From positions 16,480-48,479 of the forward strand of contig JAZRWA010000035.1 in NCBI GenBank assembly GCA_045599485.1: 32,000 nucleotides of DNA. The letters are read 5' to 3'. How positions within the stretch are numbered: position 1 is the stretch's first letter; every line of letters starts with the position of its first letter. Shown in pieces: positions 4,450 through 28,703 of this stretch. The stretch comes from Clostridia bacterium (GTDB lineage: Bacteria; Bacillota; Clostridia; Christensenellales; Aristaeellaceae). A model generated the notes under the pieces. It was not told where the DNA came from. It worked only from the letters and a program-made list of their open reading frames with translations, and ran no database searches. The position numbers were made by a program, and so were the translations under genes.

Positions 4450-4515
4450 AAAAAATCAGCTCCTGTAACGCTTTGTGATCTCCGCGCCATTGCTTTGCGT
4501 GCTCCGCTGCGGGTT

Positions 4516-5331: not shown

Positions 5332-5374
5332 TCTTTCTGTCCTCTTTAACAACGCTTTTGTCCTGTCCCGCCGA

Positions 5375-5689: not shown

Positions 5690-6859
5690 TTAAAATGTCA
5701 GTGAATCCACACGGGGCAGCAGCTCCGCCAGCTGTCCCATATAGTAGGCCGCCAGCCGCTTTCCGTCTTCCGTATGCCCCATCCGGCGGATGGTACGGCG
5801 CATCAAACGCGCATAGCCGATCACGCGCACCTTATCCAGTATTGCACGGTAGGCAGCTTCATCTTTCAGGTCAAAATACTCTTCAAAAATCAAGTGCATC
5901 AGCTCCGCGCAGGTTTCATGAGAAATGCCGAAAAAGGACGTGACCTCCCTGGGGTCCAGCTCGCCGTATCCCTGATAATCGATGTAGATCGCGGCAAACT
6001 CAAACACCGGATGCCCCTGGCTCAGGGTATCCATATCGATCAGCAGAGGCTCCCCATTCTGGAGCATCACATTCTTCACATGGCAATCCCCATGCACCAC
6101 ATGCGTATCCCGGGGTACCGCCTCGATCAGTTGACGCAGCTTCCGATACTGTTCCTGCGGAAGATGGTCCCGCAAAAAATCCGCCCAGTCCAAAGCCGTC
6201 TGCCTTGCATCGGGAAATTCCCCGGGCTTCACCTTGGTGGCATGGATCTTTTTGAGCAGCTCTGTCATCATGTGCGCACATTCCGGCAGCCGATCCGGTT
6301 CCTTTTTGAGGATATCCGCCACCGATCCGGCATTCAGCATTTCAAACACAGAGCCATAGCCGTCTCCGACACGCACCACGTCATAGGGTATGGCCGTCGG
6401 CAGACCCGCCACAAACGCCTTGCGGGCGAGTTCTCTTTCTCTCCGAATCTAAGGCAAGCTGTCGGCATGGCGGTACACCTTAATGACGGTTTCCCCATCC
6501 AGGCGGTATACCGTGCCGTTTGCCCCCTGACCGATCCTCTCACAGCCTTCAATATTCAGCCGGCGATACGCCTTGCTCACCGGGATCATTTCGGTAAAGC
6601 CGGTCATATCCAGGATATCATATACTTCGGCGGAGGCATTGATCATTTTCATTTCCGGATAGTCCTTACGCAGCCGCAGCACCACCCGAAGCCCTGCACT
6701 GGAGATGTACACCAGTTTTTCAAGGTCAAGCACAAGTCCCGGGGCAGCGTTTGCCGCGCACACGGCACGCATTTCCTTTTCCGTGCTGTCTGCGTTGGCA
6801 GAATCGATCCGTCCTTCCGGGAACAGCGTCAGCGCCCCGTCCGCAACCCGATGGTTCAC
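5690..6859 (-). CDS. STAS domain fused to an APH/choline-kinase-fold phosphotransferase domain; one in-frame TAG at 6449..6451
   Basis: Track ORFs 6449..6859 and 5690..6412 share one frame (start coordinates 6859 and 6412 are both 1 mod 3). They are separated only by TAG. The kinase N-lobe (GQGANGTVYRLDGETVIKVY) sits upstream of the TAG, and the rest (AFVAGLPTAIPYD ... HGDCHVKNVML ... LIDMD) sits downstream. GTG start follows a GGGAAGGGAG RBS. True stop is TAA. Confidence 0.75.
6449..6451 (-). other. in-frame TAG codon inside the STAS-kinase CDS
   Basis: Forward cta reads as TAG on the minus strand. Protein context is ...YRHADSLP-TAG-IRRERELARKAF... Confidence 0.9.
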
Positions 6860-6891
6860 CGGCAGTCATCTCCCTTCCCAATCAATCTTTG

Positions 6892-9276: not shown

Positions 9277-10206
9277 ATGAATCTGCTTCACTTGAAATAC
9301 GTGGTCTCCATCGCCGAAAACTGCTCGATCAACAAAGCCGCCGAAGAACTGCATGTCGCACAACCCAACTTGAGCAGAGTCGTCCGGGAAATGGAAGCCG
9401 ATCTTGGCATCCAGTTTTTTCACCGTTCCCCCAAGGGCATGCTTCTGACGCCGGACGGTGAATTGTTTATCCGTCAAGCTCGCAATATTCTGGAACAGGT
9501 GGACGCGATGGAAAGCCTGTACAAAGAGAAAAAAGCTGACAAACAGCATTTTTCCATTTCTGTTCCGCGAGCCAGCTACATCTCCGACGCATTTGCCGCT
9601 TTTTCGCGCAAGCTCGGCGAAGGTGACGCGGAAATCTTTTATCAGGAAACCAACTCCTTGCAAGCCATCAAAAACATTCTGGAGGTTGGCTACAATCTGG
9701 GCATCATCCGCTACGCGAGCGCTCATGATAAACACTTCCGGCAGCTATTGGAAGAAAAAGGGCTGCAATGCGAGCTGGTTTCGGAATTCAGATACGTTCT
9801 GGTCATGCACGAGAACAGCCCCCTTGCCGCCCTCGACAACATCCGTTTTTCCGATCTGAAGTCCTGTATTCAAATCGCCCATGCCGATCCCACGGTGCCC
9901 TCCCTGCCGCTTTCCGCTGCCCGGGAGGAAGAACCGCCGCAAACGTCCCGTCACATCTTTGTCTTTGAGCGTGGAAGTCAGCTGGACCTTTTGTCCGAGA
10001 ACCCCGAAACGTTCATGTGGGTGTCTCCCCTGCCGGAGCGACTGCTGCAGCGCTCTCACCTGGTGCAAAGGGAATGCGCCGATCAGCGTCGTATTTACCG
10101 TGATATGCTGATTTACCGTCATGACTATCACCTGACAGAGTTGGACAAAACCTTCCTGACCGACCTGATGCAATCCAAACGCACCTGCATGGGGCAAAAC
10201 AAGTAA
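9277..10206 (+). CDS. LysR-family transcriptional regulator
   Basis: N-terminal wHTH is LLHLKYVVSIAENCSINKAAEELHVAQPNLSRVVREMEADLGIQFFHRSPKG, followed by a substrate-binding-like C-terminal domain. Stop is TAA. Confidence 0.8.
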   Translation: MNLLHLKYVVSIAENCSINKAAEELHVAQPNLSRVVREMEADLGIQFFHRSPKGMLLTPDGELFIRQARNILEQVDAMESLYKEKKADKQHFSISVPRASYISDAFAAFSRKLGEGDAEIFYQETNSLQAIKNILEVGYNLGIIRYASAHDKHFRQLLEEKGLQCELVSEFRYVLVMHENSPLAALDNIRFSDLKSCIQIAHADPTVPSLPLSAAREEEPPQTSRHIFVFERGSQLDLLSENPETFMWVSPLPERLLQRSHLVQRECADQRRIYRDMLIYRHDYHLTELDKTFLTDLMQSKRTCMGQNK

Positions 10207-10221
10207 TCGCCTTCCCTTATC

Positions 10222-10265
10222 AGCCTTGCTGCTGGCTTAACCGACTGCAAGGCTCTTCTTTTTTG
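10222..10265 (+). terminator. rho-independent terminator after the LysR gene
   Basis: Stem pairs agccttgc (10222..10229) with gcaaggct (10247..10254). It is followed by a T-rich tract, tcttcttttttg. Confidence 0.65.
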
Positions 10266-10282
10266 TTCAATTTCGATCTCAT

Positions 10283-10294
10283 ATAATCGATTAT
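10283..10294. promoter_or_regulatory. perfect 12-bp palindrome ATAATCGATTAT overlapping a TATAAT box upstream of adhE
   Basis: The palindrome was read directly from the sequence. TATAAT lies at 10282..10287. Confidence 0.3.
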
Positions 10295-10339
10295 GATATA
10301 ACGGTTATACTTTTTTGGTTATTCCCAAAGAACAGCCAA

Positions 10340-10360
10340 TTCGATATAATCTATATCGAA
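10340..10360. promoter_or_regulatory. perfect inverted repeat TTCGATATA-atc-TATATCGAA overlapping a candidate -10 box (TATAAT 10345..10350) of adhE
   Basis: Arms are 9 bp with a 3-nt spacer, about 60 nt upstream of the adhE ATG. A possible -35, TTCCCA, lies at 10322..10327 with a 17-nt spacer. Confidence 0.4.
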
Positions 10361-10421
10361 AGGAAAGAAGAGCCTTTCAACGCAATGCTTGGGCGAATGT
10401 ACAAGCAAGAGGAGGAACCGT

Positions 10422-13124
10422 ATGGAAACCAAAGCATTTGACATGGTGGACAGCACCGAAGCGCTGGGTGCCGCCATTGCCCGTGTACGCGAGGCACAGC
10501 GCGTTTTCGCAACCTACACGCAGGAGCAGGTGGACCGCATTTTTCTGGCCGCCGCCACCGCTGCCAATCGGGCGCGTATTCCGCTGGCCAAACTGGCCGT
10601 TGAAGAAACCGGCATGGGCGTAGTGGAAGACAAGGTGATCAAAAACCACTATGCCAGTGAATATATTTACAATGCTTACCGCGATACCAAGACCTGCGGT
10701 GTGATCGAAGAGGATAAAGCCTACGGCATCAAGAAGCTCGCTGAGCCCATCGGCGTGGTCGCAGCCGTCATTCCAACGACCAACCCCACCTCCACCGCCA
10801 TTTTCAAGGCGCTGATCTGCCTCAAGACCCGCAACGGCATCATCTTCAGCCCCCATCCCCGTGCCAAGAAAGCCACCATCGCCGCTGCAAAAGTTGTACT
10901 GGATGCTGCGGTCAAGGCCGGCGCTCCGGAGGGCATCATCGGCTGGATCGATGTTCCTTCTCTGGAAATGACCAACATGCTGATGCGGGAAGCGGATATC
11001 ATTCTGGCCACCGGTGGCCCCGGTATGGTCAAGGCGGCTTATTCCAGCGGCAAACCGGCGCTGGGCGTCGGCGCCGGCAATGTGCCCGCCGTGATCGATG
11101 ACAGTGCCAATGTGGTGCTGGCTGTCAACTCCATCATCCATTCCAAGACCTTTGATAACGGCATGATCTGTGCTTCCGAGCAGAGCGTGATCGTGCTGGA
11201 CAGTATTTACGATCAGGTAAAGGCTGAATTTGCCCAAAGAGGCTGCTGGTTCCTGACCGGTGCCGATCTGGACAAGGTGCGCCACACCATTCTGATCAAC
11301 GGTGCCCTGAATGCCAAAATCGTCGGGCAAAGTGCCTGCAAGATCGCAGCGCTGGCCGGCGTCACCGTGCCCGAGGGCACCAAGGTGCTGATCGGTGAAG
11401 TGGAGTCCGTGGAACTGAGTGAAGAATTTGCTCATGAAAAGCTTAGCCCCGTGCTGGCCATGTACCGCGCAAGGGACATTGATGATGCCTTTGCCAAGGC
11501 CGACCGGTTGATTGCCGACGGCGGTTACGGTCACACCGCTTCTCTGTATGCCGATACGCAGAAAAAGCCCGAAGTGCTGGACGCCTTTGCTGCCCGCATG
11601 AAGACCTGCCGTATCGTGGTCAACACTCCCTCCTCGCAGGGTGGTATCGGCGATCTGTACAACTTCAAGATGGCCCCTTCTCTCACCCTCGGCTGCGGCA
11701 GCTGGGGCAGCAACTCCGTATCGGAAAACGTGGGTGTCAAGCACCTGCTGAACATCAAAACCGTGGCTGAAAGGAGAGAAAACATGCTGTGGTTCCGTAC
11801 GCCGGAGAAGGTGTATATCAAAAAGGGCTGCCTGCCGGTGGCGCTGGATGAACTCAAGCACGTTATGGGCAAAAAGAAGGCCTTTATCGTCACCGATTCT
11901 TTCCTTTATCACAATGGAAACACCGCCCCCATCACCAAAAAGCTGGATGAACTGGGCATTCAGCACGTGACCTTCTTTGACGTCGCGCCCGATCCCACCC
12001 TGGCTTGCGCCAAGGCCGGCGCGGAACAGATGCGTCTGTTCCAGCCCGATGTGATCATCGCCCTGGGCGGCGGCAGCGCCATGGACGCGGGCAAGATCAT
12101 GTGGGTGCTGTACGAACATCCCGAGGTCGATTTCCAGGACATGGCCATGCGCTTTATGGATATCCGCAAGCGCGTTTATACCTTCCCCAAGATGGGCGAA
12201 AAAGCCTGTTTTGTCGCCATTCCCACCTCCGCCGGCACCGGCAGTGAAGTAACGCCCTTCGCCGTCATCACCGATGAACAGAGCGGCGTCAAATACCCCC
12301 TTGCCGATTATGCCCTGCTGCCCAACATGGCGATCATCGATACTGATTTCCACATGACCGCCCCCAAGGGGCTGACCGCGGCCAGCGGCATCGATGCCGT
12401 GACCCACGCTTTGGAAGCCTATGCCTCCATGATGGCGACGGATTATACCGACGGTCTGGCCATCAAGGCACTGCAAACGATCTTCGAATATCTGCCTCAG
12501 GCATACGATAACGGCTTGACAGATGTGGAAGCCCGTGAGAAAATGGCTAATGCGGCCACCATGGCCGGCATGGCTTTTGCCAACGCCTTCCTGGGTGTCT
12601 GCCACTCCATGGCGCACAAGCTGGGCGCTTTCCATCACATTCCTCACGGCGTGGCCAACGCTTTGATGATCGAAGAGATACTTCGCTTCAACGCCGCCGA
12701 GGCCCCCGCCAAGATGGGCACCTTCTCCCAGTACGGTCATCCCCACACCCTGCGCCGCTACGCACAGGTCGCCGAAGCGCTGGGCATCAACCAGGGCACC
12801 GACCATGAAAAGCTGGAAGCCCTGATTCAGATGATCAACAATCTGAAGACCTATGTGGGCATCAAGCCCACCATCCGGGATTACGTCCCCGATGAACAGG
12901 ATTTTCTGGTCCGACTGGACGACATGGTGGAGCAGGCCTTTGACGATCAGTGCACCGGCGCAAATCCCCGCTATCCGCTGATGAGCGAGATCAGGCAGAT
13001 GTACCTGAACGCCTATTACGGCGGCAGGCACTTTACCGAGATGTCCAAGCCCACCGAGGCTGACATTGCCGAACCGGGAAATGACGCTGTGAAAAAAGCC
13101 TATCGCCCCGGCCGCAAGCTGTGA
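10422..13124 (+). CDS. adhE: bifunctional acetaldehyde-CoA/alcohol dehydrogenase
   Basis: 900 aa. An N-terminal aldehyde dehydrogenase domain is followed by a C-terminal iron-type alcohol dehydrogenase domain (GGGSAMDAGK, CHSMAHKLGAFHHIPHG). GAGGAGG RBS lies 6 nt before ATG 10422. Stop is TGA. The gene contains no in-frame TAG. Confidence 0.95.
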   Translation: METKAFDMVDSTEALGAAIARVREAQRVFATYTQEQVDRIFLAAATAANRARIPLAKLAVEETGMGVVEDKVIKNHYASEYIYNAYRDTKTCGVIEEDKAYGIKKLAEPIGVVAAVIPTTNPTSTAIFKALICLKTRNGIIFSPHPRAKKATIAAAKVVLDAAVKAGAPEGIIGWIDVPSLEMTNMLMREADIILATGGPGMVKAAYSSGKPALGVGAGNVPAVIDDSANVVLAVNSIIHSKTFDNGMICASEQSVIVLDSIYDQVKAEFAQRGCWFLTGADLDKVRHTILINGALNAKIVGQSACKIAALAGVTVPEGTKVLIGEVESVELSEEFAHEKLSPVLAMYRARDIDDAFAKADRLIADGGYGHTASLYADTQKKPEVLDAFAARMKTCRIVVNTPSSQGGIGDLYNFKMAPSLTLGCGSWGSNSVSENVGVKHLLNIKTVAERRENMLWFRTPEKVYIKKGCLPVALDELKHVMGKKKAFIVTDSFLYHNGNTAPITKKLDELGIQHVTFFDVAPDPTLACAKAGAEQMRLFQPDVIIALGGGSAMDAGKIMWVLYEHPEVDFQDMAMRFMDIRKRVYTFPKMGEKACFVAIPTSAGTGSEVTPFAVITDEQSGVKYPLADYALLPNMAIIDTDFHMTAPKGLTAASGIDAVTHALEAYASMMATDYTDGLAIKALQTIFEYLPQAYDNGLTDVEAREKMANAATMAGMAFANAFLGVCHSMAHKLGAFHHIPHGVANALMIEEILRFNAAEAPAKMGTFSQYGHPHTLRRYAQVAEALGINQGTDHEKLEALIQMINNLKTYVGIKPTIRDYVPDEQDFLVRLDDMVEQAFDDQCTGANPRYPLMSEIRQMYLNAYYGGRHFTEMSKPTEADIAEPGNDAVKKAYRPGRKL

Positions 13125-13140
13125 GAAGGAGGACAAAGAG

Positions 13141-13890
13141 ATGAATCTGGATCGCGTTATTGCCGTACGCAACGCCAAGACCATTTATCGGGACGGCGAC
13201 CGCTGCATCAAGGTTTTCAACGAGAGCTATTCCAAAGCCGATATTCTCAATGAGGCACTCAATCAGGCCCGCATCGAGGAAACCGGTCTGCATATCCCCA
13301 AGCTTCTGGGTGTCACCATGATCGACGGCAAATGGGCCATTATCTCCGAGTTCATTGAGGGTAAAACGCTTTCCCAGCTGATGAAGGAAGACCCGGACAA
13401 TCAGTCCCAATACCTCAACCAGTTTGTCGATCTCCAACTGGAAATACAAAGCAAGACCTGTCCCCGGCTGAACCGCCTCAAAGACAAAATGGAGTGCAAG
13501 ATCAGCCAGGCCGATCTGGATGCCACCACCCGTTTTGATCTTCACGCCCGTCTGGAGGGCATGCCCAATCACAGTAAAGTGTGCCATGGCGATTTCTGGC
13601 CCTCCAATGTAATCATCAGTACCGATGGCACGCCTTATATCATCGACTGGAGCCATGTCACGCAGGGCAACGCCTCGGCCGATGCCGCCCGCACCTATCT
13701 GCTGTTCTGGCTGAACGGTAACATCGACGGTGCCAAAGAGTACCTGAAGCTGTTCTGTGACAAGAGCGGCACTCCCCTGCAGTATGTGCAAAAATGGATG
13801 CCCATCGTGGCTGCCAGTCAGTCGGTCAAGGGCAATGAAAAGGAACGGGAGTTCCTTCTGTCCTGGGCCAACGTGGTGGAATATCATTAA
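13141..13890 (+). CDS. APH/choline-kinase-fold phosphotransferase family protein
   Basis: Catalytic motif is CHGDFWPSNVII ... YIIDWS. The fold matches the kinase part of 5690..6859. GAAGGAGG RBS lies directly after the adhE stop, suggesting co-transcription. Stop is TAA. Confidence 0.7.
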   Translation: MNLDRVIAVRNAKTIYRDGDRCIKVFNESYSKADILNEALNQARIEETGLHIPKLLGVTMIDGKWAIISEFIEGKTLSQLMKEDPDNQSQYLNQFVDLQLEIQSKTCPRLNRLKDKMECKISQADLDATTRFDLHARLEGMPNHSKVCHGDFWPSNVIISTDGTPYIIDWSHVTQGNASADAARTYLLFWLNGNIDGAKEYLKLFCDKSGTPLQYVQKWMPIVAASQSVKGNEKEREFLLSWANVVEYH

Positions 13891-13927
13891 ATCCATTGAT
13901 TTTCTGTCCTGAACGATGAGGGAAAAC

Positions 13928-13960
13928 GGAGGGAACCAACACCCCTCCTTTTCCTGTTTT
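13928..13960 (+). terminator. possible (partial) terminator between the adhE-kinase unit and the hfs-like operon
   Basis: Short stem pairs ggaggg (13928..13933) with ccctcc (13943..13948), followed by ttttcctgtttt. Confidence 0.4.
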
Positions 13961-13989
13961 ATAACAAGAATCAAAAGGAGATAAAAAAG

Positions 13990-14229
13990 ATGAAGGTTAC
14001 GGTATGTATCGGTTCTTCCTGCCACATCAAGGGTTCCCGCCCCGTTGTGGAGCAGCTGCAGGCGTTGATCGCCAAGGAAAACCTGAGTGATAAGATCGAG
14101 CTGGGCGGCACATTCTGCATGGGCAAGTGCCAGCAGGGCGTTTGTGTCACGGTAGACGACGAATTCTTCTCCGTATCCCCTGAAACGGTTGGCTCGTTCT
14201 TTGAAACTGTCATTAAAACAAGGATCTAA
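13990..14229 (+). CDS. thioredoxin-like [2Fe-2S] ferredoxin-domain protein (HfsA-like)
   Basis: 79 aa with Cys pattern CIGSSCHIKG ... CMGKCQQG. AAGGAG RBS is present. It sits immediately upstream of the sensory hydrogenase gene. Stop is TAA. Confidence 0.7.
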   Translation: MKVTVCIGSSCHIKGSRPVVEQLQALIAKENLSDKIELGGTFCMGKCQQGVCVTVDDEFFSVSPETVGSFFETVIKTRI

Positions 14230-14233
14230 TACT

Positions 14234-15910
14234 ATGCAGGATTGTCTGACTTTAAAAAAATCCAACTGCAAAAACTGCTATAAGTGCATCCGCCACTGCC
14301 CGGTAAAGTCCATCCGCTTTTCCGGCAACCAGGCGCACATCATCGGCAATGAGTGCATCCTTTGCGGGCATTGCTTTGTCGTCTGTCCGCAGAATGCCAA
14401 GGAAGTGGTGGATGAGACCGAGAAGGCAAAGGTGCTCATTCAGAGCGGCGCCCCCGTAGTCGTTTCCCTGGCGCCCTCCTTTGTCGCCAACTATGACGGT
14501 GTGGGCATCGAATCCATGCGGGAAGCGCTGAAAAAGCTGGGCTTCCACGATGTGGAAGAGACCGCTTTGGGCGCCACGCTGGTCAAGCGGGAATACGAGC
14601 GCATCCTGAAGGAAGACAACAGGGATGTCGTCATCTCCTCCTGCTGCCACTCCATCAATCTGCTCATTCAGAAGCATTTCCCCCGGGCGCTGCCTTATCT
14701 TGCCGATGTGCTCTCTCCCATGCAGGCGCACTGCGAGGATATCAAACGCCGTATTCCCGGCGCCAAAACGGTCTTTATCGGCCCCTGCGTAGCCAAAAAA
14801 GACGAGGGCGAATTCTACGAAGGCATCGTCGACGCCGTGCTGACCTATGAAGAGCTGACCAACTGGCTCAAAAAAGAAGGCGTTGAGCTTCAGCCCTCCA
14901 AATAGCCCGAGGAGCACAGCCGTGCCCGTTTCTTCCCCACCACAGGCGGTGTACTGAAGACCATGGCACAGGACGCGCCGGGCTATACCTACATGGCCTT
15001 TGACGGTGTGGAAAACTGTATCGCCGCGCTGAAGGAGATCGAACAGGGCAAGATCCATCACTGCTTCATTGAGATGAGCGCCTGTGTCGGCAGCTGTGCC
15101 GGCGGTCCGGTGATGGAAAAATACGGTCACAGCCCGGTCAAAGATTATCTGGCTGTGGCTCAGTATGCCGGCAAAGAAGACTTTGTGATCGATCAACCGG
15201 AAATGCAAAAGCTGCGCAAGCTCTTTGTCCCCATCGAGCAGCGCGCCGCGATGCCCACTGAGTTTGAGATCCGCGATATTCTGCGGGAGATGGGCAAATT
15301 CAAGCCCGCTCAGGAGCTGAACTGCGGCTCCTGCGGTTACAATACCTGCCGTGAAAAGGCCATTGCCATTTATCAGGGCAAGGCGGAAGCCTCCATGTGC
15401 CTGCCTTACCTGATGGAAAAAGCGGAAAACGTCAGCGACACCATCGCCCGCAACAGCCCGAACGGCATTCTCATGCTCAACGATCAGCTGGAAGTGCAGC
15501 AGATCAACCCCGCCGCCCGCAAGATCCTGAATCTGCGTTCCGAAAGCGCTGTGCTGGGTGATCAGGTTGTCCGCATTCTGGACCCCATCCCCTTCATGAA
15601 GGTCAAAAACACCGGACGCGGTATCTTCAACGAGCGCACCTATCTGGCGGAATACAACTGCACTGTGGAGCAGACCATCGTTCCCGCCGAGGGCGGCCGT
15701 ATGCTGCTGTGCATTATGCGTGACGTCAGTGAGGAAGAGGAAGCCCGTCAGCAGAAGGAAGACATCCGCCGTCAAACGGTCGAAGTGGCTGACAAGGTCG
15801 TCGACAAGCAGATGCGCATCGTGCAGGAAATTGCCAGTCTGTTGGGTGAGACTGCTGCCGAAACCAAGATCGCCCTTTCAAAGCTGAAGGAGTCCATCAA
15901 CAATGAATGA
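14234..15910 (+). CDS. sensory [FeFe]-hydrogenase-like protein with C-terminal PAS domain (HfsB/HydS-like); one in-frame TAG at 14903..14905
   Basis: Track ORFs 14189..14905 and 14963..15910 share one frame (both start coordinates are 2 mod 3) and are joined only by TAG. The N-terminus has 2x[4Fe-4S] motifs (CKNCYKCIRHCP, CILCGHCFVVCP). H-cluster-type motifs SSCCHS and GPCVAKKDE lie before the TAG. RFFPTTGGV and EMSACVGSCAGGP lie after it, followed by a PAS-like segment. Stop is TGA. Confidence 0.8.
14903..14905 (+). other. in-frame TAG codon inside the hydrogenase-like domain
   Basis: Context is ...GVELQPSK-TAG-PEEHSRARFFPTTGGVLKTM... Confidence 0.9.
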
Positions 15911-17072
15911 CCTGACGTGTGATATCGGCTACAAAAGCATCAATCACGCCGGCGAACAGCTTTGCGGTGATCATGTGGAAGTCGTCGAGCAATAGGATGG
16001 TTCTACCGTCATCGTACTGGCAGACGGTCTGGGCAGCGGCGTCAAAGCCAGCATTCTGTCCACCCTGACCAGCAAGATCATTTCCACCATGCTGGCCGCC
16101 GGGCTTTCCATTGAGGAATGTGTGGAAACCATTGCCGCTACGCTGCCTGTCTGCTCCATCCGCGGCGTCGCCTATTCCACCTTCACCATCATCCGCCTGA
16201 TCCGCAATCAGACAGCGGAGCTGATCCAGTACGATAACCCGCAGGTCATCATGCTGCGCAACGGTGAAAACTATGAATATCCCCGCACCGATAGCACCAT
16301 CGGCGGCAAACAGATTTTCCGTTCCCTCATCCGGCTGCAGGAAGACGATGTCTTTATCGCCATGAGCGACGGCTGCCCCCACGCCGGTATCGGCATCGCC
16401 TACAACTTCGGCTGGAAGCGGGAGGATATCATCCCCTTCATGGAAGCCATGAATCTGTGCGGCTATACCGCCAAGAACCTTTCCACCCTGTTGGTGGATA
16501 AATGCAATGAGCTGTATGGCGGCGAGCCCGGGGACGATGCCACCTCCTGTGTGGTCCGTGTCCGCAAACGCGTGCCCATGAATCTGCTTTTCGGCCCGCC
16601 CAGCAACCGCGATGACGGTGACCGCATGATGAGCCTGTTCTTCTCCAAAGAGGGCAAGCACATCGTCTGCGGCGGCACCACCTCCTCCATCGCTGCCAAA
16701 TGGCTGAACAAGCCCCTGAGGGCATCGTTGGACTTCGACAGCGACATCCCGCCCATTGCCTATCTGGAGGGCGTTGATCTGGTCACGGAAGGCGTCATCA
16801 CCATCAACCGCGTGGTGGAATATGCCAAAGATTACACCGGAGACAACCAGTGCTATGAGACCTGGAGCAATGGCAAAGACGGTGCCTGTCTGATCAGCCG
16901 CCTTCTGTTTGAGGAAGCCACCGACATCAACTTTTATGTGGGCAGAGCCGTCAACCCGGCGCATCAGAACCCCAACCTGCCCATCAATTTCAACATCAAG
17001 ATGAATCTGGTGGAAGAATTGTCCCAAGCCCTCAAAAAAATGGGAAAACGAATCAAAGTTAGCTATTTTTAA
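15903..17072 (+). CDS. SpoIIE/PP2C-family serine phosphatase (HfsC-like); one in-frame TAG at 15993..15995
   Basis: ATG 15903 overlaps the hfsB-like stop (ATGAATGA). My translation reads MNDLTCDIGYKSINHAGEQLCGDHVEVVEQ-TAG-DGSTVIVLADGLGSGVKASILSTLTSKIISTMLAAG... It runs into track ORF 16089..17072 in the same frame. PP2C motifs CGDHVEVV (before the TAG) and LADGLGSG (after it) flank the TAG; MSDGCPHAG and DDATSCVV lie further downstream. Stop is TAA. Confidence 0.8.
15993..15995 (+). other. in-frame TAG codon at codon 31 of the PP2C phosphatase
   Basis: Read as caa tag gat. It is in frame with ATG 15903 and with ORF 16089..17072. Confidence 0.9.
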
Positions 17073-17081
17073 GGAGAACGC

Positions 17082-18500
17082 ATGCGCAAATTTGATACCA
17101 AGGTACAATATCTGAAATACAAGGTGCTGCGCGAAGTTGCCCGTCAGGCATGGAATGACACGCTGCTGGAAAACGTGGTGGACATTCCCAAGATGATCGT
17201 GCCGGGCAAAATCCCCACCATGCGCTGCTGTGTGTATAAGGAGCGCGCCATTCTGGCTGAACGCGTTAAACTGGCCATGGGAGGCGGTCAGGGAGGCAAC
17301 ATCATTCAGGTCATTGATATCGCCTGTGATGACTGCCCTGCCGTCGGCTATCAGGTGACTGATTCCTGCCGCGGCTGTCTGGCTCACCGCTGTGAGGATG
17401 TCTGCAAGCGCGGTGCCATCTCCTTTGACCACAATCACGAAGCGCACATTGACAAATCCAAGTGCGTGGAATGCGGCCAGTGCGCCAAGGTGTGCCCGTA
17501 CAGCGCCATCGTCAACCGCAAGCGTCCCTGCCAGAACGCCTGCAAGATCAAGGCCATTTCCATCAATGAGGATAACGCCGCCAGGATCGATGATGAAAAG
17601 TGCATTCAGTGCGGTGCCTGTGTGTATCAGTGTCCCTTTGGGGCTATCACGGATCGTTCCTTTATCATCAACGTGATCGATATACTGAAAAAAAGCCAGG
17701 ACAACAGCAACTATAAAGTCTATGCCCTGGTTGCACCTGCCATCGGCAGTCAGCTCAATTATGCCAAGCTGGGCCAGGTCATCAGCGGTATCAAGAAGCT
17801 TGGCTTCTTTACCGTGGTGGAAGCCGCTCTGGGTGCGGATATGGTCGCCCAGGCTGAATCCAGGGAACTTGCTGAAAAAGGCTTCCTGACCTCCTCCTGC
17901 TGCCCGGCATTTGTACGATACGTCAAAACGGCTTTTCCTGCGCTTGCGCCTTATATTTCGCACAACCTGTCGCCCATGGCCACCCTTGCAAAATACATCA
18001 AGGGCAATGACAAAACGGCAAAGATTGTATTTATCGGTCCCTGCACCGCTAAAAAAGCCGAGGCGCAACTGGATGACATCAAGCCCTATGTGGATGCAGT
18101 CATCACCTTTGAAGAGCTGCAGGCACTGCTGGACAGCCGTGATATTGATATTACCACCTTGCCCGAGGATGTACTGGATAACGCCAGCTACTTTGGCCGC
18201 ATCTTTGCCCGCAGCGGCGGTCTGAGCGACGCTGTCGCAGAAGGGCTGAAGGAGCAGCATCTGGATGACTTCCAGCTGAAAGCCTGTGTCTGTGACGGCA
18301 TTGAGGAGTGTCGCATGGCGCTCATCAAAAAGGCCCACAACGCCCTGGACGCCAACTTTATCGAAGGCATGGCCTGTGTCAGCGGCTGCATCGGCGGTGC
18401 CGGCAACCTGACCCACGGTGAGAAAAACAAGGCCGCCGTGGACAGCTACGGCCGTGAAGCGTTGGAAAAAACCATCCTGGATGCCATTCCGCCGCTTTGA
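17082..18500 (+). CDS. [FeFe]-hydrogenase-family protein (HfsD-like)
   Basis: Ferredoxin-type clusters are CVECGQCAKVCP and CIQCGACVYQCP. H-cluster motifs are TSSCCPAF, GPCTAKKAE and EGMACVSGCIGGAG. AAGGAG RBS is present. Stop is TGA. Confidence 0.85.
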   Translation: MRKFDTKVQYLKYKVLREVARQAWNDTLLENVVDIPKMIVPGKIPTMRCCVYKERAILAERVKLAMGGGQGGNIIQVIDIACDDCPAVGYQVTDSCRGCLAHRCEDVCKRGAISFDHNHEAHIDKSKCVECGQCAKVCPYSAIVNRKRPCQNACKIKAISINEDNAARIDDEKCIQCGACVYQCPFGAITDRSFIINVIDILKKSQDNSNYKVYALVAPAIGSQLNYAKLGQVISGIKKLGFFTVVEAALGADMVAQAESRELAEKGFLTSSCCPAFVRYVKTAFPALAPYISHNLSPMATLAKYIKGNDKTAKIVFIGPCTAKKAEAQLDDIKPYVDAVITFEELQALLDSRDIDITTLPEDVLDNASYFGRIFARSGGLSDAVAEGLKEQHLDDFQLKACVCDGIEECRMALIKKAHNALDANFIEGMACVSGCIGGAGNLTHGEKNKAAVDSYGREALEKTILDAIPPL

Positions 18501-20382: not shown

Positions 20383-22095
20383 TCATTCATACTGCACTTC
20401 AAAAAGCACTTCACCCAACGCTTCCACGTCCCCCCGACGGACGGCATCAATGACCAGTATCTTCAGTTCAGGCAGCCGTTTCAGCGGTGTCAGATCCTTC
20501 ACCTCACAGCCGGACATGCGCAGGTAGGTCAGTCCCGTATGGCGCTCAATGCCCTCCAGGCTTGTGACGCGCGTATGCTCAATGCTCAATCTTTCCAGCC
20601 CCGTCACCCCGATCAGCGTGTCCAGGCTGTCCAGATTCGTCCATCCCATCCGCAGATCGCGGATGCGTTTTGTGCCAAGGTACCGTCCGCTGTCAGTGCG
20701 GTTGGAGATATCCAGCAGTTCCATATCATGAAGCCCTTCCAACCCGACCGCGTTATAAGCAGAGGCGTCACACAAATCCAGATAACGAAGTTCCGGCAGC
20801 GTCAGCAGCGCCGTCACGTCGATCACGGGGTTATCATTCAACCCCACGGAGTGAAGCCTCTTCAGCCCCTTCAGCGGCGTGATGTCGCTGATGCGGTTAT
20901 GCTTGAATTCCACCTTTTCCAATTGGGTCAGTGCGGACAAGGGCGCAATCACCTCGACTTCATTGGCGGCGATCATCACCCTGCGCAGGTTGGGCAGAAG
21001 CGCAACATCCTCCAGCCGCGTGATGGTGCCATGAGACCTGCTGCCTCCCGCATACCAGCAATTAGCCGCCTCATAAAACTCATCCTCATTCATGGCGATC
21101 ACATCACCGAAAACATAAAGCCCCTCGATCTTTTCCAGTTGCTCCCGACTCAGGGCGGTCTCGCTGTCAACGCCAAGCATTTTCCTTACCGCCTGCTCGA
21201 TCACCGGTTCCATGAAGGAGATGGGCCTTGTTCCACCCTGCCGCAGAAACGTCATCCTTCCAAGCAGCAACAGGCAGACCGGCACCGCCGCGATCAAAAG
21301 CAGCGTTCTTGGGAGGATTCTCGGTCTTATCAATGCTTTTTTCACTTCCGCCGCTGAAGAAAAACGATCTTCCGGGGAAAACGCCGTGCATTTTTTGACG
21401 ATTCTTTTTAGCCTCCTGTCGTCAATCCCTTCGTATTCCTCCTGCAGTACACTGCCGGTCAGCATCCACCCCAGTACCATACCCAGCGCGTAGAGATCCG
21501 AACGGCAATCGGTCTGACGGAAGCCGTATTGCTCCGGAGGAGCAAAATGCTCCGTTCCCATCACCCGTGTATCCTTTTCACCGTGGCGATTATAAAAGCG
21601 GGCAATGCCAAAGTCAATCAGCGCGACCGTTCCATCCCCGCGCAGCAGAATATTTTGAGGCTTCACATCCCGGTGGATCAGCGGCGGCGTCTGCCCATGC
21701 AGATACGTCAAAATATCACTCAGCTGCAAGATGATCTCTGTCGCCTTTGCCGGGGAAAAGGTACCGTCTATATCTGCCAACGTTTTCCCTTCAATGTACT
21801 CCCGCAGGATGCACAGTCTTTCGCCGTCCTTCCACACACGCATCACCTTTGGCAGCCCCGGATGCGTAAGCATACGCAGTTTTTCCGCAGGACCCATCTC
21901 ATCGTTCTCCCCCTGCATCAGCTTCAGAATCGCTTTTCCGTCGTTCTTTCGGCTGCGCAGCAAAAGCGTTTCCCCTCTTTCGCTGTGTCCCAGGCATTCC
22001 ATCGCTTCCCAGTCCGCCGCAATTTCCTCCGGCAGCGGGTCCTTGACGCCGGCCAAAGCCTCCTGCAGGGATGCCTTCACATCAAAATCGTTCAT
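20383..22095 (-). CDS. receptor-like Ser/Thr protein kinase: cytoplasmic Hanks kinase, one TM helix, extracytoplasmic leucine-rich-repeat domain
   Basis: Kinase motifs are HRDVKPQNILL, DFGIAR and GTEHFAPPE. The TM segment is LLLIAAVPVCLLLLG. The C-terminal half holds repeated LxxLxLxxN-type units (LKRLHSVGLNDNPVIDVTALLTLPELRYLDLCDA...). Its ATG overlaps the upstream TGA (ATGA). Stop is TGA. Confidence 0.85.
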   Translation of the reverse strand: MNDFDVKASLQEALAGVKDPLPEEIAADWEAMECLGHSERGETLLLRSRKNDGKAILKLMQGENDEMGPAEKLRMLTHPGLPKVMRVWKDGERLCILREYIEGKTLADIDGTFSPAKATEIILQLSDILTYLHGQTPPLIHRDVKPQNILLRGDGTVALIDFGIARFYNRHGEKDTRVMGTEHFAPPEQYGFRQTDCRSDLYALGMVLGWMLTGSVLQEEYEGIDDRRLKRIVKKCTAFSPEDRFSSAAEVKKALIRPRILPRTLLLIAAVPVCLLLLGRMTFLRQGGTRPISFMEPVIEQAVRKMLGVDSETALSREQLEKIEGLYVFGDVIAMNEDEFYEAANCWYAGGSRSHGTITRLEDVALLPNLRRVMIAANEVEVIAPLSALTQLEKVEFKHNRISDITPLKGLKRLHSVGLNDNPVIDVTALLTLPELRYLDLCDASAYNAVGLEGLHDMELLDISNRTDSGRYLGTKRIRDLRMGWTNLDSLDTLIGVTGLERLSIEHTRVTSLEGIERHTGLTYLRMSGCEVKDLTPLKRLPELKILVIDAVRRGDVEALGEVLFEVQYE

Positions 22096-22577
22096 TTGTC
22101 CTTCTCCTGTCCCAAAGGAGTCAGCTCGGCTTCCATCAGCAGATACTGGGTTTCCATCACGGAAAGCCCATGCCCGATGGCATAGATCAGGATCGCCTCC
22201 CGCTTGAGCCGGGCATACAAAGCGGTCTTTCGGGCGATGCGCAAAAGCTCACAGGTCTATGAATAATCCAGTCCGAAGCCAATGGCCAGCTGCAGCACCT
22301 TGTCCCGCGAGGGCGATTTACGCCCGTCAAAGATCTGATATCCAAATACCCGGTCCAGATTGGCACGCTGGATCACCTCGGCCCGTTTCAAGCCCTTTTC
22401 CCGCAGCAGCTGCTCCAGATGCTCCCGCAGCGAAACCTCCTGCAGTGCTTCGGCATGGGTGTTCAGATAACGTTTAAAGTCCCGCGTACGCAAAATACCA
22501 TTGGTCAGTTCATCGGTCGTGAAACGTTTTTTTGTCTTGTCCATATCGGTCTTTTCTGGCACAAACATCACATACAC
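22092..22577 (-). CDS. XRE-type helix-turn-helix regulator; one in-frame TAG at 22257..22259
   Basis: Track ORF 22257..22577 ends at TAG. My translation continues in frame as TCELLRIARKTALYARLKREAILIYAIGHGLSVMETQYLLMEAELTPLGQEKDK, reaching a TGA at 22092..22094 that overlaps the kinase ATG. The start is uncertain, at 22577, 22568 or 22544. Confidence 0.7.
22257..22259 (-). other. in-frame TAG codon in the HTH regulator
   Basis: Context is ...LAIGFGLDYS-TAG-TCELLRIARK... Confidence 0.85.
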
Positions 22578-22736: not shown

Positions 22737-23774
22737 TCAGTCTGCCACTGTAATGTGCTCCAGCACGGTATAGAGGAAATCCACATCTGCCGCGGTCAGC
22801 GGATTCGTCTTTTTCACGTAGATGTAAACATATCCGCCGTTGATGACCGCCGCACTGCGAAGCTGATTGTCACCGGTGAAAGGAAAAACAATGTATGGAA
22901 TACCATTGATCTCCTGAATATCATATGTTCCGGAAGCGGACATCACTTCGGCGATTGCGTCTGCCAACGCCTTCAGGTCGGCAGGGCTGAACCTGCGGGA
23001 ATCATCTGAAGCATCGTATTTTTTCTCTTTGGCACGGATATAAACCATGGCATTTTCACCGGTCAAGCCATTTTCATTGAGGCGCCAGATCATCATGTCC
23101 GTGCCCTCGCCCATCCTGAGCGCGCTGTCGATCAGGTCGTACGCATAGCCGCTGCGCTGAACAGACAGGCTGTCGTATGGCATATCCTGATATACGATGT
23201 TATACTCATTTTCAGACAGATCCACCAGCAGCGGCCCATTTTGAAGATAAAATCCACGATCGGTCAGATAGTTTTTCGCCTGCGTGTTTGTCTGCGCGTT
23301 CTCCTGGGCTTGAACAGAAAGGGCGTTCATGATACTGCGGCATGCTGCATCATCGGGATATTTTCCGCTGGTGCTGTCAGTCATCGCCGCTACCAGCAGT
23401 TTTGTTCCGTTCAGCGCCATGACAAAACGGTATTCATATCCCTGCTCGGTGTATCGAAAAGATGCACAGGGGATGCCGGCGGCGATCTCCTCATTTTGAA
23501 AGCCGTCATTCGTTCCGAACATCATCACCGCCAGTGTCTCCAGCACCATGTCCGCCATGCTGTCCAGCCACTACTGTTGATAACCAAAGTCCGTCAGTTC
23601 GTATGTGTTCACAGAAAACATCACATTATCCACGTAATACCAGTTGGAATACACCGAGGTGTTTTCCGGCAGAGCGATCCGGTAGCCAGTGCCCAGATCA
23701 TAAACCGTATCCGCGCAGGCGACGGTCAATAACAGGAGCAAGCTCAAAAGCAAACATAATGCTCTTTTCATCAT
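22737..23774 (-). CDS. secreted/lipoprotein-like hypothetical protein; one in-frame TAG at 23571..23573
   Basis: Track ORFs 23571..23801 and 22737..23558 share one frame (both start coordinates are 2 mod 3). They are joined as ...ELTDFGYQQ-TAG-WLDSMADMVLE... The signal peptide MMKRALCLLLSLLLLLTVAC lies upstream of the TAG, and the mature domain lies downstream. Stop is TGA. Confidence 0.7.
23571..23573 (-). other. in-frame TAG codon in the secreted protein gene
   Basis: Forward cta is in frame with both flanking ORFs. Confidence 0.85.
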
Positions 23775-23797: not shown

Positions 23798-26644
23798 TCA
23801 TTTCGTTTCCTCAGACTCTGCCTGTTCCACCAGCATCAGCAGCTTTCGGTTGCCTTCATGCCGCTTCAGAAGCATATTATGCACATTTTTCAGCATGGCA
23901 GAGGCTTTTTCTTTATGTCCCAATGCCGCAAGGCAGCGGGAGGTATAGAATCGGCATTGCAGAACCGAGCCCTCATCCACGTTTTCAAACAGGCTCTGGG
24001 CCTCTGCCAGCAAGCCAATGGCTTCCTCCGGCTTGCCGCACTGCAGAAGTGCCCGGCCACCGGCCAGAAAAGCTTCGCCCTCCAGTTCGGGGTCTGAATT
24101 CACATAGCCGCGGCAGTATGCAATCAGGTTCCTGGCGATCTTTTCGCCCTCTTCAAACTCATCATGATCCATCAGAAGGCGAAGATAGTTGCTATACGCC
24201 CTCACAACAGCTTCAAACCGTTCATCTTTTTCAAGCACATGTTTCAGATGGTCGCTGAGTTCTTTTCGTGTCTGCTGATACTCCCCGCACTTGCTGAGGA
24301 AAAAATGATAAGTGCTGCGGATGGGGGTCACCGTAGGCGAATCATCGGCATAACCACGCTTTTTCATGTTGTCCATCACGCGGCGCATCAGTGGAAGCGT
24401 TTCCGACCACTGACCCATATCCGCCAGCGTATACGCCATGCGGGAATCATTGGCGGCCTCCTGCACCGTACCTGTCAGACAGAGTTTTTCGATCAGCTCC
24501 CGCCCTTGTCGAAGCACTTCCGCCGCGCGCTGCTGATTCTGGTCCACAGCACGCAGCTTGCCGCCAAGAAAGTTGCAGTAATCCACCATACGTTTGTCAT
24601 CGTCGGGCCGCAGCCGTTCAAACAGCATATTCAGCTGTGCAGGTTCGGCATATTTGCCGCCAACCTCCAGCACGTTGAGCAGCAGTGAATAGTTGGTGGT
24701 GCTCAAAAGATCCTTTTCTTCACAGGTGCTCAGCGTTTCCACCGCACCACGATATTGTTCAGGCCGTGATCGCAGGATCGCCCACAGCAGCTGCATGATC
24801 TGATAATCGATCTCATCCACCGCGGTATGCTCATGGGTGTCGAGCCATTTGCGGTGCAGCTTAGGCAGATCATCGGTGATGCTGCCCGTGGGACGGGTCA
24901 TCACGCTTTGTTCAAGCCCGATGATCAGGGAAAGCGCTGTCCGATCCAGATGGGCGGTATAGCGCAGCAGATTTTCGGCCTGCGGTACAAAGCTCTGCGT
25001 CTTTTCAGTCATGGGCTACGCAAACATTTTGTTCAGCTTCTGCCACAGCTTCGGATACTCGTCGCAGCTGCCCGGCTCCTGACGCAGGTTCTATGCAATC
25101 ACGGGATGCATCAGATAACCGTCCTCATTCCATACCAGCCACCCCTCAGTATTGAGGCTGTTCAGCTGAGCGGACAGTTCCTTCTCGCTGTCCGTGATGT
25201 CGCAGGTATATTCCAACAGCTCCGCCGGTTTCCAGCTTCGATAACCCAAAGCCGCGATCAAACGGATCAGCGGACGCAGTTTTCCGGCCGGCAGTACGCG
25301 GTACAAGCCATTTGCAGCAGAGTTCAGTTCAGAGGAGCCAATGAGGTTCATCATGCCAAACTCATCCACATGCCGTCTCAGTTCCTCGATTTTCCAAAAG
25401 CGAGTACAGCACAGGCTGCCCAGCAGCGTCAGCGTCAACGGATGACCGTGTACGCAGTGCACCAATGCCTTCGCCTCTTCGATCTCTTCCTTTTCCAAGG
25501 TGCGGCCCACGCTCAAACTCAGCAAGGCTACCCCCTCCTGCTCTGTCATGGGGGGCACGGTTATCGTTTCCATGCCGTCAAAGGAAGTCATATGGCCTGT
25601 GATCAGAATATCACAATTAAAGCAGGCCAGCAGGTCCAGTCCGGCATCCTCGCGGGTATTGACGTTATCAATGATCAGCAGCGCCCGTCCCTCTTCGGGG
25701 TTTTCCAGCAACGCTTTCACGTTTTTGATACAGTCCGCCCCGGAAAGGCCTGTAAAAGCGGCGGCAAATCCGGCTTCCAGGCTTTTGTCATACTGCACGC
25801 ATGCAATACGGCTGTAGGCAGATCGCCGTTTGAGGATCGCCAGTACCTGACGGGCGAGCTCGGTTTTGCCGCTTCCGTCGATACCGCTCAGATAGACTTT
25901 TCCGCTATGTTCCAGATGGCCTATGACCTGCTGCGGCGTCAGCCCAAGCGCAATATATTTCTACGATGGCAGCGGCGCACGATACAGCACGCAATTGCCT
26001 CCCGTGATCACCGCTGTCTTTTTCAAAAGCTCGGTCACCAGGGAGCAGATCACTTCAAAGGTATTTTCCGGGTCGCGGCGCAGATGATTCAGCTTATCGC
26101 TGTTCATTTCCGACCCATATAAGGCAAACAGCGACAACCAGGCCAGACGGAAGGCATCCGCCACCAGACGACGGCTGCTCTCCTACGGCACGGCGGCACC
26201 AAACGAGCGGATGCTGGTCAGATAATCCCGTACGGGCGCCGCGATAAATACATCCGTTTCTGTACACTCTTTTTCAAAGCTGTTCATATACGCCGCGAAA
26301 GTTGCCGGATGATAACCACGTCCCAGCAAAAAGCGCGCGGCGTTGCGTGTCAATTGTACAAGGCCGGTCTGTGTCAGCGGCAGCTGCTCCCGCATCAGGC
26401 GCGGCAGCGAGTTGGGACCGGTGCGGTTCATCAGGCTGGATTGAACACGGGGATGTGATCCATCGGCGGGAAACAGCGTATTCAATGCAGATTGGGGAAG
26501 CACATCGGTCAGAAGGTCACGCCAAAAGCCCACGAGCGTCAAGCCATCCAGCGCACCGGGCATATAAAGCTCCCGGCGTGCCTGTTTGCTTGTCAGCACG
26601 CGATATATGTTTTTGGGGGTCAGAATCATGTTGGTTTCTGTCAC
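23798..26644 (-). CDS. STAND NTPase: unknown N-terminal domain of about 250 aa, NB-ARC ATPase, C-terminal TPR-like array; four in-frame TAGs
   Basis: Four track ORFs (26183..26725, 25961..26164, 25091..25798, 23798..25012) share one frame, with all start coordinates 1 mod 3. They are separated only by TAG at 26183, 25961, 25091 and 25016. Walker A (GIDGSGKT) lies between track ORFs. Walker B is LLIIDNV and the GxP motif is GHPLTL. The remaining roughly 400 aa are TPR-like helical repeats. GTG 26644 lies 7 nt after a GGAGG RBS. True stop is TGA. Confidence 0.8.
25016..25018 (-). other. in-frame TAG codon (STAND NTPase, linker before the TPR region)
   Basis: Context is ...WQKLNKMFA-TAG-PMTEKTQSF... 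Confidence 0.85.
25091..25093 (-). other. in-frame TAG codon (STAND NTPase, end of the NB-ARC winged-helix region)
   Basis: Context is ...EDGYLMHPVIA-TAG-NLRQEPGS... Confidence 0.85.
25961..25963 (-). other. in-frame TAG codon (STAND NTPase, just upstream of the P-loop)
   Basis: Context is ...VLYRAPLPS-TAG-KYIALGLTPQQVIGHLEHSGKVYLSGIDGSGKT... Confidence 0.9.
26183..26185 (-). other. in-frame TAG codon (STAND NTPase N-terminal domain)
   Basis: Context is ...SIRSFGAAVP-TAG-ESSRRLVADAFRL... Confidence 0.85.
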
Positions 26645-26675
26645 GGTATGGCCTCCGCTGCGGGATGTTAGTCGT

Positions 26676-26704
26676 ATTGTATACGATTCCGGGTGGATTA
26701 TCAA
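26676..26704 (-). promoter_or_regulatory. sigma-A-type promoter for the STAND NTPase gene
   Basis: On the minus strand: TTGATA (26704..26699), a 17-nt spacer, then TACAAT (26681..26676). It lies about 30 nt upstream of the RBS and GTG. Confidence 0.55.
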
Positions 26705-26757
26705 CTGCAAGACCGAAAACCGCATTCAAGCAGTTTCCGGTCTTGCCAACACATGGG

Positions 26758-28626: not shown

Positions 28627-28703
28627 TGGTACGCCCGGTGCGATTCGAACGCATGGCCTTCAGAGTCGGAGTCTGACGCTCTATCCAGCTGAGCTACGGG
28701 CGC
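28627..28703 (-). tRNA. tRNA-Arg, anticodon CCG, with encoded CCA end
   Basis: Minus-strand sequence is GCGCCCGTAGCTCAGCTGGATAGAGCGTCAGACTCCGACTCTGAAGGCCATGCGTTCGAATCGCACCGGGCGTACCA. It folds as a cloverleaf with acceptor GCGCCCG/CGGGCGT, D-arm GCTC..GAGC, anticodon stem TCAGA/TCTGA, loop CTCCGAC (anticodon CCG), and T-loop TTCGAAT. Confidence 0.9.

Follow-up and report, generated by a model that had tools for sequence, protein, structure and literature searches.

The window analysed here is a 32,000-nucleotide stretch of a Clostridia bacterium genome (GenBank assembly GCA_045599485.1, contig JAZRWA010000035.1, positions 16,480 to 48,479 of the forward strand), and it carries genes whose reading frames run through the amber triplet TAG. 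Six-frame scans of the window with TAG as a sense codon, together with direct reading at the two sites in the hfs genes, revealed nine in-frame TAGs distributed over six genes. A preliminary description of this DNA, made from its letters, had placed in-frame TAGs at 14903 and 15993 and nine such sites in six genes, all of which were recovered. The peptides around these codons (x marks TAG) were recovered as well, namely QPSKxPEE, VEVVEQxDG, GLDYSxTCELL, SLPxIRRERE and MHPVIAxNLR. The families to which the TAG-containing genes had been assigned were confirmed by Pfam, except for a lipoprotein-like protein, which matched no Pfam family.

The first of the two hfs genes, hfsB (14234..15910, +), encodes a sensory [FeFe]-hydrogenase-like protein with a PAS domain and extends from an ATG at 14234 to a TGA ending at 15910, comprising 558 codons including the TAG. 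This TAG, at codon 224 (hfsB224; 14903..14905, +; context aaa TAG ccc), interrupts a single Fe_hyd_lg_C domain, and Fe_hyd_lg_C, FeS and PAS domains are found 3' of it. The orthologue on a sister contig (L163) is full length and shares 93.5% identity, with a ratio of nonsynonymous to synonymous substitution rates (dN/dS) of 0.074 for the part before the TAG and 0.061 for the part after it. The second gene, hfsC (15903..17072, +), encodes a SpoIIE/PP2C-type phosphatase of 389 codons including the TAG, from an ATG at 15903 to a TAA ending at 17072. Its TAG lies at codon 31 (hfsC31; 15993..15995, +; context caa TAG gat; peptide VEVVEQ[E/Q]DGSTVIVLADGLGSGVK), and the SpoIIE domain begins directly 3' of it. 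The hfsC protein is 99.0% identical to that of L163, and the dN/dS downstream of the TAG is as low as 0.008.

The other four genes are encoded on the minus strand. A STAS-APH kinase gene (5690-6865, -) has a TAG at codon 139 (STASk139; 6449..6451, -) that interrupts its single Pfam APH domain. An XRE-like helix-turn-helix (HTH) regulator gene (22092-22568, -) contains a TAG at 22257..22259 (-), termed HTH105 after the numbering of its open reading frame (ORF) from 22571, and the lipoprotein-like gene (22737-23774, -) contains one at codon 68 (lipo68; 23571..23573, -). The STAND NTPase gene (23798-26725, -), the true start of which is uncertain within 26629-26725, possesses four TAGs: STAND181 (26183..26185, -), STAND255 (25961..25963, -), STAND545 (25091..25093, -), which is the one in MHPVIAxNLR, and STAND570 (25016..25018, -), each named for its codon. 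TAG is the sole stop triplet that occurs in frame in the window's genes, TAA and TGA being in frame in none of the real genes. It accounts for about 0.1% of codons, mostly in less conserved regulatory and accessory genes, in a window with a G+C content of 54%. By contrast, none of the 26 complete genes ends with TAG (13 end with TAA and 13 with TGA). Nine in-frame TAGs together with 0/26 TAG gene ends exceed chance.

Contigs of the same clade were retrieved from NCBI, Logan and ENA; they are collinear with the window over about 70 kb at 86-89% nucleotide identity. Four lineages are distinguished below: that of the window's organism (W), that of assembly GCA_024404275.1 with the matching Logan and ENA contigs (S; loci L163-L169), a third represented by L162 and a fourth represented by L170. 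The clade occurs, for example, in the samples behind SRR17543910, SRR28408226, SRR21150819 and ERZ27247129/131. A search with the HTH protein yielded, besides full-length homologues, proteins of 95 and 103 residues that stop exactly at the TAG. Such proteins, cut exactly at HTH105 (P0017, P0019, P0020 and P0121), stem from NCBI, including the window's own entry, from Logan, from ENA and from GCA_024404275.1, and in the last of these assemblies the two halves of the HTH gene are annotated as two genes, MJ136_00660 and MJ136_00665. The HTH105 TAG is common to W, S and L162 (L161-L165), with CAG at this position in L170; the STAND255 TAG (L164, L168 and L169) and the STAND545 TAG (L163, L164 and L169) are both common to W and S. 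In total, the sister assemblies share three TAGs with the window and possess six private ones, five in S and one in L162.

The genes of the S lineage display the same pattern as those of the window. Each TAG at which public gene calls place a stop in S lies inside a gene whose frame runs on beyond it, and TAG is found at 0 of about 38 genuine gene ends, all of which are TAA or TGA; for W and S together the count is 0 of about 64. Comparison of W with S gave a synonymous divergence (dS) of about 0.3-0.5 and a dN/dS of 0.008-0.25 on either side of every TAG, and because the ratio is this low downstream, the segments that follow TAG must be translated and under selection. No sequence context common to the 15 distinct TAG sites of the clade was found in a search for one, which argues for general decoding of the codon and not for a local, site-specific recoding signal. 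Altogether, it is nearly certain that UAG is a sense codon in W and in a small uncultured clade of Oscillospirales-like Clostridia from rumen and gut that includes at least three species-level lineages.

In public gene calls and in NCBI annotation, every TAG-containing gene of the clade is broken into fragments, as seen for GCA_024404275.1 (L163, L166 and L168) and for the window-derived P0017 and P0130, so protein databases hold truncated products for these organisms. For example, a 596-residue SpoIIE-HATPase protein of the clade is present in public gene calls as pieces of 445 and 142 residues. A Ser/Thr kinase gene with leucine-rich repeats presents a different kind of break: it is one ORF of 570 codons in the window (20383-22095) and two frames in L163 (3234-4127 and 4148-4945), which reflects a frameshift or an assembly error in L163, not a split at TAG.

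To place the clade among organisms with the standard code, GTDB species representatives and metagenome contigs were scanned with the hydrogenase, which provided 160 rumen and gut Clostridia loci with Acutalibacteraceae- or Oscillospiraceae-like names as outgroups, the closest of them at about 90-92% protein identity in the hydrogenase. No in-frame TAG was found in the orthologous genes of these 160 loci. The distribution of TAG is therefore coherent by lineage, with private and shared TAGs in W, S and L162 and none in outgroup orthologues. In outgroup L006, TAG even ends the hydrogenase gene hydA at the orthologous stop position. Terminators were also counted with a rough gene caller, and TAG ends 4 of 140 genes (3%) in the nearest standard-code relatives (loci L001-L007, L081-L087 and L093) versus 39 of 381 (10%) in far ones, which suggests that TAG was depleted as a terminator before it was reassigned. 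One of the four is a minus-strand ORF of L006 (7546-8448); after its TAG come 200 codons in the same frame that score positively as coding, and this could be an in-frame TAG outside the clade.

Further analysis concerned the residue that is inserted. At positions where TAG in one lineage is matched by a sense codon in another, the sense codon is taken as the partner of TAG; 12-13 of the 15 distinct TAG sites are variable in this way. The partners are dominated by glutamate (Glu, seven sites), followed by glutamine (Gln, three or four), lysine (one) and aspartate (one). Tyr, Trp, Leu and Ser, the codons of which are likewise one step from TAG, are never found opposite it within the clade. Four of the Glu partners are GAG codons (Abh140, Abh196, STAND570 and STAND181, the latter with GAG in L164, L168 and L169), and three are GAA (STASk139, hfsC31 and STAND822). 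The Gln partners are CAG at hfsB224 and lipo165, CAA, CAA and CAG in sister lineages at lipo68, and CAG at HTH105 in L170; the Lys partner is AAG at codon 446 of the SpoIIE-HATPase gene, and the Asp partner is GAT at STASk191.

These partners were evaluated with a likelihood model in which the substitution frequencies were taken from the same 9,301 aligned columns of W and S. The log-likelihood of the W-S partners is -18.7 for Glu, compared to -39.8 for Gln, -42.4 for Asp and -44.6 for Lys. In these alignments, replacement between Glu and Gln affects only about 0.5-1.4% of Glu or Gln columns. A partner set of Glu, then Gln, Asp and Lys is the ordinary replacement spectrum of Glu, so in its evolution TAG behaves as a Glu codon would. 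Glu would accommodate all the partners, since GAG and TAG would then be synonymous and the change from CAG to TAG would be a conservative replacement by a single transition.

The columns that align with TAG in homologues from outside the clade provide a second line of evidence. At STASk139, homologues at 56-66% identity possess Asp in 117 and Glu in 2 of 119 sequences, with no Gln, and at STASk191, the site of a TAG in S, they have Glu in 50, Ala in 25, Asp in 17 and Gln in none of 119. The HTH105 column consists of Glu in 101, Gly in 8, Asp in 3 and Gln in 1 of 113 sequences. At hfsC31, all 15 orthologues of at least 84% identity have Glu (12 GAG and 3 GAA), and more distant ones have Gly, Asn, Asp or Ser. 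The hfsB224 column is composed of four Gln, four Ser, three Arg, a Lys and a His at 84-88% identity, and of Asp in 83 of 99 orthologues at 40-84%. For the STAND NTPase, only four homologues at 34-37% identity are detectable, which makes its columns weak; they contain three Glu and one Ala at 545, two Glu, one Asp and one Gly at 255, two Gly, a Glu and a Lys at 181, and two Pro, a His and a Gly at 570. The lipo68 column, with homologues at 27-45% identity, contains three Asp, two Glu, an Ala, a Lys and a Pro, and lipo165 falls in an unalignable linker.

When the columns were summed as log-odds in the manner of Codetta, Glu scored about +9 and Asp about +5, and Gln, with a negative score, fell outside the six best residues, the lowest of which scored -7.7 to -16.7; this holds wherever the effective number of sequences is capped. 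Most of the weight comes from HTH and STAS-kinase. The columns thus bear out an acidic residue, above all Glu (101/113 at HTH105, 15/15 at hfsC31, 50/119 at STASk191 and 3/4 at STAND545, besides Asp 117 and Glu 2 at STASk139). Glu ranks first in both the clade partners and the outside columns, two largely independent lines of evidence drawn from comparison of sequences.

Much of what the preliminary description had expected from families and a paralogue agrees with these results. It had proposed an acidic or amide residue for TAG, which is borne out and narrowed to Glu by partners and columns. Its alignment of the APH-like kinase at 13141-13890 with the STAS-kinase, which placed Asp opposite the TAG, was reproduced by BLASTP (E = 3e-12), with SKADILNEA opposite SLPxIRRER and Asp32 at the TAG, and is matched by the D117/E2 column and by GAA in the sister genome. 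Glu had been expected at the HTH site, where it now predominates; the STAND site in MHPVIAxNLR, likened to the end of the MHxLVQE type, has Glu in three of four homologues; and the PP2C-type site of hfsC, thought to be acidic or polar, has Glu in its 15 close orthologues and in the sister, with Gly, Asn, Asp or Ser farther away. The tabulation of homologues that it had proposed yielded acidic residues in the informative columns, and Tyr, Trp and Leu never stand opposite TAG within the clade. Its choice of the two hfs sites as the cleanest tests did not hold, in that the hfsB column is hypervariable among near orthologues and far more can be read from the HTH and STAS-kinase columns.

On this comparative evidence, we consider it likely that UAG is read as Glu in this genome and its clade. 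Several points weigh against this assignment. Gln codons are the partners at three or four TAG sites, and at HTH105 the nearest relative with a sense codon, L170, has CAG, which would be equally parsimonious if TAG were Gln. However, the three Gln cases hfsB224, lipo68 and lipo165 lie in variable columns; farther out, homologues carry acidic residues at the first two, and no alignment is possible at the third. The sample is small, with 15 distinct TAG sites, many of which lie in poorly conserved proteins. ARAGORN detected no tRNA(CUA) in the window and 37 loci, the clade loci of about 70 kb among them, and the release factor 1 (RF1) gene prfA does not lie within the window and clade loci, which make up part of the genomes. 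In addition, Normanly, Kleina, Abelson and Miller reportedly observed that engineered tRNA-Glu amber suppressors of E. coli are partly mischarged with Gln, so mixed decoding is conceivable.

Among the alternatives, the main rival is that UAG is read as Gln by a supE-like tRNA-Gln(CUA), a code known from gut phages with recoded TAG (code 15) and from several ciliates. It has the conventional precedent, with metaproteomic proof in crAss-like phages (PMC9523058), and the TAGs at hfsB224, lipo68 and lipo165 stand opposite CAG or CAA across W, S and L162, and L170 carries CAG where the other lineages have the HTH105 TAG in common. CAG is converted to TAG by a single transition, and changes between C and T are the commonest at fourfold sites (365 of 972). 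The same abundance of C-T changes should have made CAG the dominant partner, yet Glu codons occupy 7 of the 12-13 variable sites, three of them as GAA, which is two steps from TAG. Given the Glu-Gln background of 0.5-1.4%, Glu opposite TAG in 7 of 14 columns is not credible under a Gln code; with Gln replaced by Glu in about 1.4% of Gln columns, 7 or more such cases in 14 would have a binomial probability of about 1e-10. The empirical model puts Gln 21 log units below Glu, the column model leaves it out of the top residues, and the columns speak against it with counts of 0/119 at STASk139, 0/119 at STASk191 and 1/113 at HTH105. Gln, which had been named as the conventional expectation, is therefore the weaker hypothesis here and not the default, and we regard it as unlikely. 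Ranked third, and improbable in our view, is ambiguous decoding as a mixture of mainly Glu and Gln, which could arise if a CUA tRNA were charged by both glutamyl-tRNA synthetase (GluRS) and glutaminyl-tRNA synthetase (GlnRS), if transamidation were incomplete, or if near-cognate tRNAs read the codon after RF1 loss. Both GluRS and GlnRS rely on the anticodon as a major identity element, so partial charging with Gln would be possible; Glu and Gln partners are both present, each above background replacement, and the rarity of TAG (about 0.1%) with its bias to less conserved regulatory and accessory genes would be expected of a somewhat costly codon. On the other hand, TAG stands in columns that are acidic and strongly conserved (D117/E2 and E101/113), and its retention at three sites across lineages with a dS of about 0.4 points to a residue that is inserted reliably and tolerated. 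In E. coli devoid of RF1, read-through by near-cognate tRNAs also gives Tyr, Trp and Lys, whereas no Tyr or Trp and only one Lys occur among the partners here.

The remaining alternatives fare worse. Genome-wide reading of UAG as pyrrolysine (Pyl) or another non-canonical residue would be the bacterial counterpart of the Pyl-coded archaea, which provide the only genome-wide reassignment of UAG reported so far in prokaryotes according to the gTranslate preprint, which cites Kivenson et al. 2025; according to the preprint, such a code hardly lowers coding density and is readily overlooked. The partners and columns are nevertheless acidic and not Lys-like, with Lys at 1 of 13 sites even though AAG occurs as often as GAG or CAG, and replacement at tolerant sites would favour CAG, by transition, and AAG over GAG, with GAA unexpected. 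Neither pyl genes nor methylamine methyltransferases were found in the window or in the clade loci of about 70 kb, a weak argument as it covers about 100 kb of the genomes. We consider Pyl very unlikely. An Asp code, which is less probable still, could draw on the best-conserved column opposite TAG (STASk139, Asp in 117 of 119), on the Asp of the in-window paralogue, on the second place in the column log-odds (about +5) and on the 83 of 99 more distant orthologues with Asp at hfsB224. It is contradicted by a single Asp among the clade partners against seven Glu (log-likelihood -42.4 versus -18.7), by the HTH105 column with 101 Glu against three Asp, and by the Glu codon GAA that the sister genome carries at STASk139. 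Finally, the TAGs might be nonsense mutations in decaying genes or errors of sequencing or assembly under an unchanged code, as public annotation implies by reading them as stops and splitting the genes (MJ136_00660/00665). This explanation is effectively refuted: TAG alone, never TAA or TGA, lies in frame; identical TAGs recur in independent assemblies and lineages; dN/dS far below 1 downstream of each TAG leaves no room for neutral evolution or decay of the frame; TAG is missing from the roughly 64 genuine gene ends of W and S; and the domains it interrupts look essential. The pseudogene or artefact, Pyl and Asp readings were accordingly rejected, the first on dN/dS and independent assemblies, the second on the acidic, non-Lys spectrum and the third on the Glu-dominated partners.

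Returning to Glu as the favoured residue, we lean towards the view that this uncultured rumen and gut clade possesses an undescribed bacterial genetic code in which UAG means Glu and UAA and UGA remain stops. In the mechanism we propose, UAG would be read by a tRNA with the anticodon CUA, probably derived from tRNA-Glu and charged by GluRS, RF1 would have been lost or would no longer compete, and RF2 would perform all termination, at TAA and TGA. Prior depletion of TAG as a terminator, a role in which it serves only about 3% of genes in the closest relatives with the standard code, probably eased the change. The low share of TAG among codons and its confinement mainly to regulatory and accessory genes suggest that the reassignment is recent.

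Comparison with known codes revealed partial resemblances on several sides. The use of a stop codon as Glu recalls the eukaryotic codes in which both UAA and UAG (UAR) specify Glu, namely those of peritrich ciliates (NCBI table 30) and of Blastocrithidia nonstop (table 31); in Blastocrithidia (PMC12153298), the stop is read as Glu by a cognate tRNA-Glu with a changed anticodon. In those eukaryotes, however, UAA and UAG change together, whereas here only UAG is affected and UAA ends 13 of 26 genes; moreover, the host here is a bacterium with termination of the RF1/RF2 type, and its decoding tRNA is only predicted. Phage code 15 of the gut (crAss-like and Lak phages) is similar in being restricted to amber, in its gut or rumen habitat, in its suppressor-tRNA logic and in leaving TAA and TGA unchanged. 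It differs in that it belongs to phages, is usually used in late genes and inserts Gln (PMC9523058), compared to a cellular chromosome here (with adhE, hydrogenases and transporters), a clade-wide distribution and a residue that is probably Glu. In phyllopharyngean ciliates, where UAG codes for Leu or Gln and UAA is a stop, the uncoupling of UAG from UAA is likewise recent and lineage-specific (PMC11687900), although these are eukaryotic nuclear codes with other amino acids. Because the columns opposite TAG do not favour Gln and UAA is kept as a stop, the present case would fall outside both the phage amber group and the eukaryotic stop-to-Glu group.

Among prokaryotes, the closest likeness is to the archaea that read UAG genome-wide as Pyl, the sole earlier reported case of UAG as a general prokaryotic sense codon. 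Pyl decoding, genome-wide in archaea and conditional in bacteria, nonetheless depends on the pyl system and inserts a Lys derivative, as opposed to the acidic spectrum found here. The bacterial UGA codes (UGA to Trp in Mycoplasmatales and others, UGA to Gly in Absconditabacteria and Gracilibacteria) are also stop-to-sense changes, in which a release factor was lost and a cognate tRNA gained. They concern a different stop and a different release factor (RF2 there, RF1 here) and are found mostly in AT-rich or reduced genomes, compared to 54% G+C here. The codes reported in bacteria comprise UGA to Trp, UGA to Gly, several changes of Arg codons, ACA to Asp and CGG to Ala. Known bacterial stop reassignments all concern UGA, and amber as a general sense codon is confined to Pyl, to phages (as Gln) and to eukaryotes. 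Recent screens, which covered 250,000 to 2.7 million prokaryotic assemblies, include no reassignment of UAG in a bacterium, and the searchable literature contains no report of UAG as Glu, or of any amber code for a canonical residue, in a cellular bacterium.

If the assignment to Glu is true, the clade would provide the first case among prokaryotes of a stop codon reassigned to Glu, as well as the first cellular bacteria known to read amber as a canonical amino acid, and a natural loss of RF1 function together with a tRNA-Glu(CUA) would be implied. If confirmed, it would establish an RF1-independent bacterium with a normal-looking genome of 54% G+C, in which amber was captured without genome reduction or AT pressure. 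It would also provide a natural pair of GluRS and tRNA(CUA), a natural analogue of engineered RF1-free strains, and would expose systematic mis-annotation of these metagenome-assembled genomes. Furthermore, it would bear on phage-host biology, as TAG-recoded phages are common in the same habitats.

Several further features of the locus were observed. The block of LysR, adhE, APH-like kinase, hfsA, hfsB, hfsC and [FeFe]-hydrogenase genes (window 9277-18500) is syntenic in about 160 rumen and gut Oscillospirales loci, and the genes flanking this hfs/adhE block in the window were found only on contigs of the recoded clade. The sole tRNA in the window and clade loci is a tRNA-Arg(CCG), located at 28627-28703 (-) in the window and at the same position in the sister (L168, 11288-11364; L169, 4170-4246). 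About 10 kb past the right end of the window, the sister encodes a free-standing PF04073 protein (L171, 11975-12451, -) of the YbaK-like aminoacyl-tRNA editing type, which adjoins an AP endonuclease and LepA; many Clostridia possess proteins of this type, and no connection with the recoding was established. In addition, long ORFs of 814-935 codons run antisense to the SpoIIE-HATPase gene (2905-5349, +), to adhE (10377-13184, -) and to hfsC and the hydrogenase gene (15897-18416, -) in the window. Their translations are of low complexity and rich in Arg, His and Gln, and they look like a by-product of codon bias, not like genes.

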